From the NCBI RefSeq assembly GCF_044324875.1, contig NZ_CP172185.1: DNA of 64,000 nt. One strand, 5' to 3'. A program made the translations under genes and the position numbers. The notes below the pieces were generated by a model, which was given only the letters and a program-made list of their open reading frames with translations, was not told the origin of the DNA and ran no database searches. The stretch comes from Escherichia coli. Lineage in GTDB: Bacteria; Pseudomonadota; Gammaproteobacteria; Enterobacterales; Enterobacteriaceae. Below are positions 12,188-42,678 of this stretch, one piece after another. Positions within the stretch are counted from its first letter, which is position 1; the number at the start of each line of letters is the position of its first letter.

Positions 12188-12769
12188 ATGGCGGTTCAAA
12201 AGAATGTTATCAAAGGCATACTGGCAGGTACGTTTGCGCTAATGCTGAGCGGTTGTGTTACTGTGCCGGACGCCATTAAAGGCAGCAGTCCCACGCCGCA
12301 ACAAGATTTAGTTCGGGTGATGAGTGCGCCGCAGCTGTACGTTGGTCAGGAGGCTCGCTTTGGTGGCAAAGTGGTTGCGGTACAAAACCAGCAAGGGAAA
12401 ACCCGCCTGGAAATTGCCACCGTACCACTGGACAGCGGAGCCAGACCGACGCTGGGAGAACCTTCTCGCGGTCGCATTTATGCTGATGTGAACGGTTTTC
12501 TGGACCCGGTAGATTTCCGTGGACAACTGGTTACGGTAGTCGGGCCAATCACCGGTGCGATTGACGGCAAAATCGGCAACACGCCCTATAAATTTATGGT
12601 GATGCAGGTAACGGGTTACAAACGTTGGCATTTAACCCAGCAGGTGATTATGCCGCCTCAGCCGATTGATCCATGGTTTTATGGCGGTCGTGGCTGGCCC
12701 TATGGCTACGGCGGATGGGGCTGGTATAATCCCGGCCCCGCGAGAGTACAAACAGTTGTAACTGAATAA
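12188..12769 (+). CDS. yeaY: Slp-family outer-membrane lipoprotein YeaY
   Basis: 193-aa ORF with signal peptide and lipobox (LMLSGC). Confidence 0.88.
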
Positions 12770-12792
12770 TTGCTTGTTTTTAAAGAAAAAGA

Positions 12793-12818
12793 AACAGCGG
12801 CTGGTCCGCTGTTTCTGC
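12793..12818 (+). terminator. Hairpin after yeaY (aaacagcgg ctggt ccgctgttt), possibly doubling as a distal FadR-like box
   Basis: Perfect 9-bp inverted repeat seen in sequence immediately 3' of the yeaY stop. Confidence 0.45.
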
Positions 12819-12884
12819 ATTCTTACGGTAAAGATAAAAATAAATAGTGACGCGCTTCGCAACCTTTTCGTTGGGTAATTATCA

Positions 12885-12901
12885 AGCTGGTATGATGAGT
12901 T
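12885..12901 (+). promoter_or_regulatory. Putative FadR operator in the fadD promoter (AGCTGGTATGATGAGTT)
   Basis: About 12 of 17 matches to the FadR consensus AACTGGTCNGACCTGTT, about 75 bp upstream of the fadD TTG start; fadD is a known FadR target. Confidence 0.45.
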
Positions 12902-12973
12902 AATATTATGTTAACGGCATGTATATCATTTGGGGTTGCGATGACGACGAACACGCATTTTAGAGGTGAAGAA

Positions 12974-14659
12974 TTGAAGAAGGTTTGGCTTAACCGTTAT
13001 CCCGCGGACGTTCCGACGGAGATCAACCCTGACCGTTATCAATCTCTGGTAGATATGTTTGAGCAGTCGGTCGCGCGCTACGCCGATCAGCCTGCGTTTG
13101 TGAATATGGGGGAGGTGATGACCTTCCGCAAGCTGGAAGAACGCAGTCGCGCGTTTGCCGCTTATTTGCAACAAGGGTTGGGGCTGAAGAAAGGCGATCG
13201 CGTTGCGTTGATGATGCCTAATTTATTGCAATATCCGGTGGCGCTGTTTGGCATTTTGCGTGCCGGGATGATTGTCGTAAACGTTAACCCGTTGTATACC
13301 CCGCGTGAACTTGAGCATCAGCTTAACGATAGCGGCGCATCGGCGATTGTTATCGTGTCTAACTTTGCCCACACTCTGGAAAAAGTGGTTGATAAAACCG
13401 CCGTTCAGCACGTAATTCTGACCCGTATGGGCGATCAGCTATCTACGGCAAAAGGCACGGTAGTCAATTTCGTTGTTAAATACATCAAGCGTCTGGTGCC
13501 GAAATACCATCTGCCAGATGCCATTTCATTTCGTAGCGCCCTGCACAACGGCTACCGGATGCAGTACGTCAAACCCGAACTGGTGCCGGAAGATTTAGCT
13601 TTCCTGCAATACACCGGCGGCACCACAGGTGTGGCGAAAGGCGCGATGCTGACTCACCGCAATATGCTGGCGAACCTGGAACAGGTTAACGCGACCTATG
13701 GTCCGCTGTTGCATCCGGGCAAAGAGCTGGTGGTGACGGCGCTGCCGCTGTATCACATTTTTGCACTGACCATTAACTGCCTGCTGTTTATCGAACTGGG
13801 TGGGCAGAACCTGCTTATCACTAACCCGCGCGATATTCCAGGGTTGGTAAAAGAGTTAGCGAAATATCCGTTTACCGCTATCACTGGCGTTAACACCTTG
13901 TTCAATGCGTTGCTGAACAATAAAGAGTTCCAGCAGCTGGATTTCTCCAGTCTGCATCTTTCCGCAGGCGGAGGGATGCCTGTTCAGCAAGTGGTGGCAG
14001 AACGTTGGGTGAAACTGACTGGACAGTATCTGCTGGAAGGTTATGGCCTGACCGAGTGTGCGCCGCTGGTCAGCGTTAACCCGTATGATATTGATTATCA
14101 TAGTGGTAGCATCGGTTTGCCGGTGCCGTCGACGGAAGCCAAACTGGTGGATGACGACGACAACGAAGTACCACCGGGTCAACCGGGTGAGCTTTGTGTC
14201 AAAGGACCGCAGGTGATGCTGGGTTACTGGCAGCGTCCGGATGCTACCGATGAGATCATCAAAAATGGCTGGTTACACACCGGCGACATCGCGGTGATGG
14301 ATGAAGAAGGATTCCTGCGCATTGTCGATCGTAAAAAAGACATGATTCTGGTTTCCGGTTTTAACGTCTATCCCAACGAGATTGAAGATGTCGTCATGCA
14401 GCATCCTGGAGTACAGGAAGTCGCGGCTGTTGGCGTACCTTCCGGCTCCAGTGGTGAAGCGGTGAAAATCTTCGTAGTGAAAAAAGATCCATCGCTTACC
14501 GAAGAGTCACTGGTGACTTTTTGCCGCCGTCAGCTCACGGGCTACAAAGTACCGAAGCTGGTGGAGTTTCGTGATGAGTTACCGAAATCTAACGTCGGAA
14601 AAATTTTGCGACGAGAATTACGTGACGAAGCGCGCGGCAAAGTGGACAATAAAGCCTGA
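12974..14659 (+). CDS. fadD: Long-chain-fatty-acid--CoA ligase (acyl-CoA synthetase)
   Basis: ORF 12908-14659; start assigned to TTG at 12974 ([14 protein letters not shown]...) to give 561 aa; AMP-binding motif ([12 protein letters not shown]) present. Confidence 0.93.
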
Positions 14660-14679
14660 GCGTTAAGTCAGTCGTCAGA

Positions 14680-14704
14680 CGCCGGTTAATCCGGCGTTTT
14701 TTTT
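14680..14704 (+). terminator. Rho-independent terminator of fadD (cgccgg ttaat ccggcg followed by T8)
   Basis: GC stem-loop followed by a run of eight T seen in sequence 20 bp after the fadD stop. Confidence 0.7.
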
Positions 14705-14728: not shown

Positions 14729-15856
14729 TTGAATTACCAAATGATTACCACGGACGATGCGCTGGCTTCTTTGTGTGAAGCCGTCCGTGCCTTTCCGGCG
14801 ATAGCCCTGGATACTGAATTTGTTCGTACGCGCACCTATTACCCGCAACTGGGTCTAATTCAACTTTTTGATGGTGAGCATCTGGCGCTAATTGATCCTC
14901 TCGGGATCTCCGACTGGTCACCGCTGAAAGCGATCCTGCGCGATCCGTCCATCACAAAATTTCTCCATGCGGGCAGTGAAGATCTGGAAGTGTTCCTCAA
15001 TGTCTTTGGCGAATTACCACAACCCTTGATTGACACGCAAATCCTTGCTGCCTTCTGCGGACGCCCGATGTCATGGGGTTTCGCTTCCATGGTGGAAGAG
15101 TATTCCGGCGTTACGCTGGACAAGAGTGAATCGCGCACCGACTGGCTGGCCAGACCGCTGACCGAACGTCAGTGTGAATACGCAGCGGCGGATGTCTGGT
15201 ATCTGTTACCGATCACCGCAAAGCTTATGGTAGAAACGGAGGCCTCCGGCTGGCTACCTGCGGCGCTGGATGAATGCCGCCTGATGCAAATGCGTCGTCA
15301 GGAAGTCGTTGCACCGGAAGATGCCTGGCGTGATATCACCAATGCCTGGCAGTTACGCACACGCCAACTGGCCTGTCTGCAACTGTTAGCCGACTGGCGA
15401 CTGCGCAAGGCGCGGGAGCGCGATCTGGCGGTGAACTTTGTCGTGCGTGAAGAGCATTTGTGGTCGGTAGCGCGTTATATGCCGGGAAGTTTAGGCGAAC
15501 TGGACAGCCTGGGCTTATCCGGTAGCGAAATCCGCTTTCACGGTAAAACGCTGCTGGCGCTGGTGGAAAAAGCGCAGACATTGCCGGAAGAGGCCTTACC
15601 GCAGCCGATGCTTAACCTGATGGACATGCCGGGTTATCGTAAAGCGTTTAAAGCGATTAAGTCGCTGATTACTGACGTGAGCGAAACGCACAAGATCAGC
15701 GCCGAATTGCTGGCATCGCGTCGGCAAATCAACCAACTGCTGAACTGGCACTGGAAACTGAAACCGCAGAACAATTTGCCGGAGCTGATTTCCGGCTGGC
15801 GTGGTGAGCTGATGGCGGAAGCATTACACAATTTATTGCAGGAATATCCGCAGTAA
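14729..15856 (+). CDS. rnd: Ribonuclease D
   Basis: 375-aa ORF beginning at TTG 14729 (MNYQMITTDDALASL...); 3'-5' exonuclease and HRDC regions. Confidence 0.92.
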   Translation: MNYQMITTDDALASLCEAVRAFPAIALDTEFVRTRTYYPQLGLIQLFDGEHLALIDPLGISDWSPLKAILRDPSITKFLHAGSEDLEVFLNVFGELPQPLIDTQILAAFCGRPMSWGFASMVEEYSGVTLDKSESRTDWLARPLTERQCEYAAADVWYLLPITAKLMVETEASGWLPAALDECRLMQMRRQEVVAPEDAWRDITNAWQLRTRQLACLQLLADWRLRKARERDLAVNFVVREEHLWSVARYMPGSLGELDSLGLSGSEIRFHGKTLLALVEKAQTLPEEALPQPMLNLMDMPGYRKAFKAIKSLITDVSETHKISAELLASRRQINQLLNWHWKLKPQNNLPELISGWRGELMAEALHNLLQEYPQ

Positions 15857-42579: not shown

Positions 42580-42678
42580 AAAGCGGTAGAAAAAGTTAAG
42601 TTCCCGGTTGATCGAATGGATGCGAATCGCTGATCGGACTTCGATGCCAATCCGTGATCGAATAGAGCGGAATACGCA

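Follow-up and report, generated by a model that had tools for sequence, protein, structure and literature searches.

The spacer between the yeaY and fadD genes of Escherichia coli was analyzed within a stretch of 64,000 nucleotides (nt) of contig NZ_CP172185.1 (assembly GCF_044324875.1), referred to here as the window, which carries the genes yoaA-tsaB-yeaY-fadD-rnd in this order on the + strand according to the RefSeq annotations of strain 120899 and of K-12 MG1655. The genes, regulatory sites, start regions and RNA elements described below are all given on that strand, and a window position w corresponds to position 1902720 - w of MG1655. The yeaY gene (12188-12769), identified from the list of open reading frames (ORFs) and from the two RefSeq records, encodes an Slp-family lipoprotein (Pfam Slp, E = 3.5e-45). 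It is followed by fadD (12974-14659), which encodes a protein of 561 amino acids (aa) with a Pfam AMP-binding domain (E = 4.7e-101) and is annotated from the TTG codon at 12974 both in K-12 and by the Prokaryotic Genome Annotation Pipeline (PGAP). The rnd gene (14729-15856), which starts 70 nt downstream of fadD, also has a TTG start in the curated K-12 record and encodes RNase D, a protein of 375 aa with Pfam 3'-5' exonuclease and HRDC domains. The locus matched complete E. coli genomes with 100% identity over the 401 bases around the segment of interest, and of the 5426 complete genomes available for this species, all but one (5425) contained the region. The interval 12793-12901, to which a first-pass annotation made from the sequence had drawn attention, is almost certainly part of the spacer between yeaY and fadD in E. 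coli, in other words of the classical fadD promoter. The strings quoted in that annotation were all found in their places, i.e. GCTGGTCCGCTGTT at 12800-12813, AGCTGGTATGATGAGTT at 12885-12901, an ATG at 12908 and the TTG codons at 12974 and 14729.

For the comparative analysis, one genome per species was scanned, which yielded 80 Enterobacterales loci ranging from Escherichia to Yersinia, Serratia, Pectobacterium and Edwardsiella. The gene order was kept throughout this set, with rnd downstream of fadD in all 80 species and yeaY upstream in 79 of them, the flank of the 80th locus, where yeaY was not visible, being only 250 bp long. The alignment of the spacers revealed four strongly conserved blocks. 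The first of them, AGTGAnnnnnnTCGCAACCT, is a binding site for CRP and is conserved across Enterobacterales; the second, AACTGGTACGCTGAGTTAATATTATGTTAAC, joins the stronger of two FadR sites to the -10/start region, whose own sequence, GAGTTAATATTATGTTAAC, is nearly invariant across species; the third, GGGGTTGCGATGACGAC, is located in the leader; and the fourth comprises the Shine-Dalgarno sequence and the TTG start codon of fadD. Among the 80 loci, hardly any variation was seen in the CRP site, in the strong FadR site or in the -10/start block.

The transcription start of fadD has been placed 60 bp upstream of the start codon (Feng & Cronan 2012, PMC3460868, citing Black et al.), which in the window corresponds to the A at 12914 (12974 - 60). 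A published CRP gel-shift probe of the fadD promoter is identical to window positions 12828-12875 and contains a CRP-cAMP site with the core aGTGA-N6-TCgCA (12846-12861), which was called class I by the authors (PMC3460868, PMC4259882) and whose center, calculated here from the start at 12914, lies at about -60.5. When the core elements were deduced from the mapped start, the -10 element was probably TAATAT (12901-12906), which overlaps the last base of the strong FadR site, and, with a spacer of 16 bp, the -35 element was probably the weak hexamer TTATCA (12879-12884; 4 of 6 matches). The features that characterize a CRP-dependent class I sigma-70 promoter, namely an activator site located near -61.5, core elements of low strength and a mapped transcription start, were thus all present. 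It counts against this assignment that the mapped promoter, including its -35 element, was not called by a simple pattern scan, for which the core hexamers were too weak.

The two FadR-like boxes of the spacer, regarded as putative in the first-pass annotation, turned out to be the published and experimentally bound operators of fadD and can be considered established. The FadR gel-shift probes for fadD sites 1 and 2 (Feng & Cronan 2012, PMC3460868; Zhang et al. 2014, PMC4259882) coincide base for base with positions 12875-12910 (site 1) and 12791-12823 (site 2) of the window. The first of these segments contains the strong operator OD1, AGCTGGTATGATGAGTT, at 12885-12901 (-29 to -13), and the second contains the weak operator OD2, GGCTGGTCCGCTGTTTC, at 12799-12815 (-115 to -99), which extends over the loop and the 3' arm of a hairpin located behind yeaY. 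Sequences, positions and spacing to the transcription start agree fully with what has been published on the E. coli operators OD1 and OD2. According to the same studies, the affinity of FadR for site 1 is similar to that for the fadL sites and more than 10-fold higher than that for site 2, and FadR is released from both fadD sites by oleoyl-CoA (PMC3460868, PMC4259882). In addition, the authors state that their findings are consistent with the DNase I footprints that Black et al. published in 1992 (PMC3460868, PMC4259882).

The two operators were not equally recognizable by sequence. A FadR weight matrix was constructed from five sites outside fadD (two from fadL and one each from fadBA, fabA and fabB, with sequences taken from published primer tables) and was used to scan 127,968 positions of the window. 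OD1 scored 13.6 bits and ranked third among the 127,968 positions, when about one match was expected in shuffled sequence. In contrast, the score of OD2 was 4.9 bits and its rank 115, when about 148 matches were expected by chance. Only the downstream box, OD1, beats chance by sequence, and OD2, with a score at chance level, therefore rests on the published binding data and not on its sequence. The scan thus agrees with the proposal that the box at 12885-12901 is a better FadR site than the one on the hairpin, as does the more than 10-fold difference in published binding. Black et al. 1992 reportedly placed the fadD operators at -29 to -13 and at -115 to -99. The best matrix match of the whole window, CGCTGATCGGACTTCGA (42628-42644, 15.7 bits), was located inside an ORF for which coordinate transfer from K-12 suggested ydjK, and it is probably a chance match.

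The hairpin on which OD2 lies had been described as a perfect inverted repeat at 12793-12818 and as the terminator of yeaY. The repeat is real and perfect, and only its position had to be corrected, by 2-3 nt, to 12790-12816, with arms at 12790-12800 and 12806-12816 that form a stem of 11 bp, six of them GC pairs, around the loop CTGGT (12801-12805). Its first base lies 20 nt past the yeaY stop codon. The + strand was predicted to fold with -21.6 kcal/mol and a z-score of -3.4, the - strand with -20 kcal/mol and a z-score of -5.0; none of 200 shuffled sequences was as stable on either strand. An equivalent hairpin was found after the yeaY stop codon in 52 Enterobacteriaceae. In the alignment of its 40 distinct sequences, 98.2% of the cells were paired, as compared with at most 68% in slid controls and with 0 of 500 shuffles that did as well, and compensatory double changes had occurred at 4 of the 11 pairs (24 cells). 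G.U wobbles accounted for 12 cells when the alignment was read as + strand RNA, and none of the eight cells left unpaired would have become a G.U pair on the - strand; therefore, the structure is under selection in the yeaY transcript. A T-rich tail follows the stem in the 52 relatives (median of 9 T in 12 positions, range 6 to 10), and in more distant genera the corresponding place is occupied by GC hairpins of unrelated sequence, likewise with T runs.

Of the features expected of an intrinsic terminator, the yeaY hairpin thus shows a stable GC-rich stem-loop close behind a stop codon and compensatory changes in relatives, but no mapped RNA 3' end. Several data from E. coli itself argue against efficient termination. 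The + strand tail (UGCAUUCUU after the stem) has 7 T in 12 positions and is among the weakest of the 52 relatives, its U tract consisting of UUUCU inside the stem and then GCAUUCUU, and it gave no call in the pattern scan. The same scan marked the hairpin as terminator-like on the - strand only, with the tail TTTTTCTTT, because the E. coli T tail is weak and the A tract just upstream of the stem is strong (8 of 9 A; 2 to 8 of 9 among relatives). Moreover, the Term-seq tables of PMC7815308 list no RNA 3' end between K-12 positions 1888020 and 1893787, an interval that includes the hairpin, although yeaY was perhaps poorly expressed in the conditions used, and termination at this site is therefore inferred and not observed. 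In agreement with an incomplete block, overproduction of sigma-E increased the expression of yeaY 2.8-fold, of fadD 2.2-fold and of rnd 1.5-fold (Bury-Mone et al. 2009). Compared with known intrinsic (Rho-independent) terminators, including bidirectional ones, the yeaY hairpin is alike in its GC-cored stem-loop after a stop codon, its flanking A/T tracts and its covariation, but it differs in that its U tract is interrupted in E. coli, that it lacks a mapped 3' end and that the downstream genes respond to the sigma-E promoter. In E. coli it is at best a partial terminator. Taken together, the conserved RNA structure and the T-rich tail of its relatives support the first-pass assignment, and the hairpin is probably a conserved but leaky intrinsic terminator of yeaY, possibly bidirectional.

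Shortly before yeaY, where tsaB comes to its 3' end, the segment 12128-12155, still inside tsaB, reads GAAACTT-16 nt-TCTTA. We take this arrangement to resemble the sigma-E promoter consensus. Its location agrees with the published sigma-E induction of yeaY that spreads to fadD and rnd.

Other readings of the hairpin were weighed against the one just given. The overlap with OD2, the partly palindromic nature of FadR sites themselves and the lack of a listed Term-seq 3' end would fit an inverted repeat that is no RNA element at all and serves solely at the DNA level, as a palindrome recognized by FadR or another protein. The symmetry center of the repeat (12803), however, lies 4 bp from the center of the FadR 17-mer (12807), and the stem covaries through G.U intermediates that can pair only in + strand RNA (12 versus 0). 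The loop that contains the FadR core CTGGT varies freely, with 19 loop sequences in 52 species and CTGGT in 8 of them, and the hairpins with T runs of the distant genera are unrelated in sequence. A DNA palindrome alone is thus disfavored, and we regard it as very improbable. A better case, although still an unlikely one, can be made for a hairpin that acts mainly on the - strand, or in both directions, and stops antisense transcription coming from the fadD promoter region toward yeaY. The pattern scan called only this strand, the z-score of the - strand is the better one (-5.0), and E. coli has 8 A in the 9 positions just upstream of the stem. Nevertheless, no gene or promoter that would need termination on the - strand was evident from the ORF list and the pattern scan, the upstream A tract (2 to 8 of 9) is far less conserved than the + strand T tail (6 to 10 of 12), and the G.U wobbles favor + strand RNA. 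A bidirectional activity would in any case be compatible with the terminator of yeaY and does not replace it.

The coincidence of OD2 with the terminator is reflected in the conservation of the two operators. The OD1 17-mer, AACTGGTACGCTGAGTT, was identical in 55 of the 80 species, and a CTGGT-type site was present in 77 of them. By contrast, the core CTGGT of OD2 is the hairpin loop, the most variable part of the hairpin, which is kept in 8 of the 52 relatives, and the 17-mer equivalent to OD2 had a median matrix score of -2 bits across species. Variation was also found within E. coli, since in two divergent strains (L085 and L086) the loop is CCGGT instead of CTGGT, owing to a T to C change at 12802, while the stem is intact. 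Both fadD FadR sites have been described as 'largely conserved' in Citrobacter, Klebsiella and Enterobacter (PMC3460868), a remark that therefore holds for site 1 only, given the variability of the OD2 core across relatives and within E. coli. Thus, OD1 matches the FadR consensus better than chance, occupies a position that blocks the promoter and is conserved; OD2 matches the consensus no better than chance and is not conserved, and at -115 to -99 it does not overlap the promoter. Judged from the aligned sequences, OD2 looks like an Escherichia-lineage overlay on a conserved terminator and not like a conserved operator.

Some natural variants of E. coli affect these sites. The change to a CCGGT loop at 12802 disrupts the weak FadR site in its core, and one of the strains that carry it also has a central T-to-A change in OD1. 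In strain PEC301 (L088, positions 1440-2414), the IS30-like element ISApl1 is inserted at about window position 12838/12839, between the hairpin and the CRP site, a natural variant in which the weak operator lies about 1 kb apart from the promoter.

The location of OD2 also admits the reading that it is a recent exaptation of the yeaY terminator loop in the Escherichia lineage, in which FadR, by binding to the DNA of the hairpin, would form a roadblock and so strengthen a leaky terminator. If so, sigma-E read-through from yeaY into fadD and rnd would take place only when fatty acids release FadR. This reading would be compatible with an operator that is too far upstream for promoter occlusion and coincides with the hairpin, as well as with the weak U tract of E. 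coli and with the spread of sigma-E induction to fadD and rnd. On the other hand, nothing speaks positively for it, as no link was found across species between CTGGT loops and weaker T tails, and we consider this reading to be very improbable.

Translation of fadD was predicted in the first-pass annotation to start at the TTG codon, and the available data point to the same codon. Besides the K-12 annotation, this start belongs to the EcoGene set of N-terminally sequenced proteins, and the gene-start predictor Hon-yaku lists its own prediction for fadD, 11 codons longer, as an error. The TTG at 12974 is preceded at a distance of 4 nt by the Shine-Dalgarno sequence GAGGTGA (12963-12969), whose duplex with the anti-Shine-Dalgarno sequence amounts to -7.1 kcal/mol. 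Among the 80 species, positions -11 and -8 of this element were invariant and position -7 was 97% conserved, and the start codon was TTG in 75 species, GTG in 5 and ATG in none. The sequenced N terminus of FadD is reportedly Met-Lys-Lys-Val-Trp, and processing of a longer protein could not produce it, since such a protein would carry Leu at that position. A verified N terminus and a properly spaced ribosome-binding site, as expected of a genuine UUG start, were found for fadD; for rnd, the corresponding features are the curated K-12 start and a weak Shine-Dalgarno pairing.

The ORF of fadD is open back to an in-frame ATG at 12908-12910, 22 codons upstream of the TTG, and a second in-frame ATG is present at 12941, 33 nt (11 codons) upstream, so that the TTG might be an internal leucine codon of a longer protein. 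The first of these codons, which had been named as the alternative start, does not stand up. It lies 6 nt upstream of the transcription start at 12914 and, therefore, outside the mRNA made from the fadD promoter, it has no Shine-Dalgarno pairing (-2.8 kcal/mol), and its conservation is explained by its location inside the -10/start block. The upstream ATG that deserves attention is the one at 12941. It ends the motif GGGG-TTGCG-ATG (12932-12943), in which the G-rich, ribosome-binding-like stretch GGGG at a spacing of 5 nt pairs with -5.4 kcal/mol, making this ATG a candidate secondary start that would give a FadD of 572 aa. An ATG exactly at -33 was present in 70 of the 80 species, and in 67 of these the anti-Shine-Dalgarno pairing was -4 kcal/mol or better. 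The pN/pS ratio of the six codons between this ATG and the Shine-Dalgarno sequence was 0.54 in the fadD frame and 1.24 and 0.74 in the shifted frames, as compared with 0.11 in the true fadD coding sequence and about 0.95 in the upstream leader; given so short a region and the lack of independence among the pairs, these values are suggestive but weak. In 2007, Hon-yaku had already suggested that fadD might have a second start at this ATG, and tetracycline ribosome profiling listed 'alt-N'(new) fadD -33', with a product of 572 aa, at a low signal of 4.04 (Nakahigashi et al. 2016). A literature search for papers joining fadD with retapamulin profiling gave nothing relevant.

These data weigh against an exclusive use of the UUG, and some initiation may occur at ATG 12941 besides it. 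A minor second start at 12941 is plausible, although we hold it to be somewhat less probable than its absence. It is, in contrast, very unlikely that an upstream ATG, whether 12908 or 12941, is the sole start of fadD, and we give this little credence. For 12941, the conserved G-rich motif, the presence in 70 of 80 species, the pN/pS of 0.54, the tetracycline profiling and the gene-start predictor would speak in its favor; however, the TTG belongs to the N-terminally sequenced set, and neither ATG has a Shine-Dalgarno sequence as strong or as well conserved. Moreover, profiling gave little signal at -33, the amino acid sequence of the extension is poorly kept (pN of 0.33 versus 0.07 in the coding sequence), and in some Yersiniaceae the ATG at -33 is missing or out of frame. 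Like clpB, lambda S and other genes that have two starts in the same frame (PMC4909307), fadD carries a conserved AUG ahead of its main start, with a separate ribosome-binding motif; unlike them, it shows a weak profiling signal, and the second FadD protein species is a candidate only.

The leader that precedes the fadD start contains some further sequences of note. The RNA from 12914 to 12990 folded no better than shuffled sequences (z = +1.6). A perfect 8-nt inverted repeat, TCGCAACC (12857-12864) and GGTTGCGA (12934-12941), was considered as a long-range pairing and rejected as a coincidence, because consistent compensation was not seen across species and the transcription start lies between the arms; one arm is the right half of the CRP site, the other is located in the leader and ends at the A of ATG 12941, and each arm falls within a conserved block. 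The leader was also considered to contain a further CRP site, which was likewise rejected, since many species have TGTGA where E. coli has TGCGA but the other half-site is absent. An out-of-frame ORF of 14 codons (12919-12963) begins with an ATG 5 nt after the transcription start and ends with a TAG (12961-12963) that adjoins the fadD Shine-Dalgarno sequence; this stop is not conserved, many species having TTTCAG instead of TTTTAG.

Downstream of fadD, rnd had also been predicted to start at a TTG, and here again the prediction is sustained, as the TTG at 14729 is the curated K-12 start and the codon was kept in 76 of the 80 species, with GTG in 3. The methionine at codon 5 was not conserved, and the Shine-Dalgarno pairing of rnd is weak (-2.9 kcal/mol). 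Zhang and Deutscher (1988-1992) reportedly dealt with the rnd UUG, its role in translation and an upstream U-rich hairpin. With respect to their UUG initiation, the gene and the codon found here are the same, without any difference. Zhang & Deutscher 1989 is cited in PMC3592434 (its reference 19). In at least two E. coli strains (L001, position 4542; L088, position 4403), the automatic NCBI annotation instead starts rnd at the ATG at 14741, with a product of 371 aa (WP_001303529.1). On the pattern of codon conservation, this automatic start is probably four codons too short.

The 3' end of fadD contains the sroD RNA (14618-14703), which matched Rfam RF00370 over its full length (1-86) with 115.2 bits, against a gathering threshold of 50, and which includes at its end the hairpin of a terminator (14677-14699), followed by eight consecutive T. 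Term-seq 3' ends of fadD/sroD have been mapped at K-12 positions 1888017 and 1888020 (Adams et al. 2021, PMC7815308), corresponding to 14703 and 14700 of the window, which is 26-29 nt upstream of the rnd UUG.

The remark that two adjacent genes, fadD and rnd, both use UUG initiation is correct, both codons being annotated K-12 starts and deeply conserved, and it raises the question of whether a shared mechanism, such as a coupled translational control of the two genes, lies behind it. Both UUGs are conserved across the 80 species with the gene pair staying adjacent, sigma-E induction spreads from yeaY to fadD and rnd, and the fadD terminator places a U run 26-29 nt before the rnd UUG, all of which would be in line with such a mechanism. 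Nevertheless, the terminator with its strong Term-seq 3' ends separates fadD from rnd, the initiation regions are unrelated, with a strong Shine-Dalgarno sequence in fadD (-7.1 kcal/mol) and almost none in rnd (-2.9 kcal/mol), and the functions of the two genes are unrelated as well. Furthermore, 81 UUG starts are annotated among the approximately 4,300 genes of K-12, so that chance would place two such genes side by side about 1.5 times per genome, and therefore the adjacency of fadD and rnd needs no special explanation. We thus see only a slim chance for a shared mechanism, and the adjacency is most likely a coincidence. The retention of each codon is another matter, since neither fadD nor rnd has an ATG at the UUG position in any of the 80 species. 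Both UUGs would be held by selection across Enterobacterales, most simply for low translation of each protein, and their long-term retention suggests selection for weak initiation.

The sites described above fit the textbook mechanism of fadD control. Transcripts of yeaY would end, incompletely, at the 11-bp GC-cored hairpin (12790-12816). Transcription of fadD depends on the weak sigma-70 promoter with its start at 12914, to which polymerase is recruited by CRP-cAMP at the class I site near -60.5. When long-chain acyl-CoA is absent, a FadR dimer occupies OD1, the operator that fills the spacer between the probable -35 and -10 elements, and thereby excludes RNA polymerase, until acyl-CoA releases FadR from this operator; OD2, being much weaker, probably adds little repression. 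The mRNA is translated mainly from the UUG at 12974 behind the strong GAGGUGA Shine-Dalgarno sequence, and rnd, located behind the fadD/sroD terminator, also starts at a UUG. The fadL promoter resembles that of fadD in having two FadR sites, CRP activation and ArcA repression. However, the FadR sites of fadL lie 8 bp apart and are equal in affinity, whereas those of fadD are separated by about 69 bp and have affinities that differ more than 10-fold, and the weak fadD site, in contrast with the fadL promoter, lies on a terminator hairpin.

The data support the first-pass reading of this region as correct, with every element of it already in the literature, and the comparative results add modest, incremental refinements to the published picture. 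The fadD promoter is among the best characterized of the E. coli fad regulon and offers little discovery value, and the correct derivation of its control region from raw sequence serves as a sanity check of such reading. As regards other genomes, automatic annotation probably makes rnd four codons too short in many strains of E. coli, and the weak FadR site, if lineage-specific as it looks, would be a poor guide for the prediction of the FadR regulon in other genera. Finally, the maintenance of the fadD and rnd UUG codons across Enterobacterales argues for a selected low translation of both proteins.

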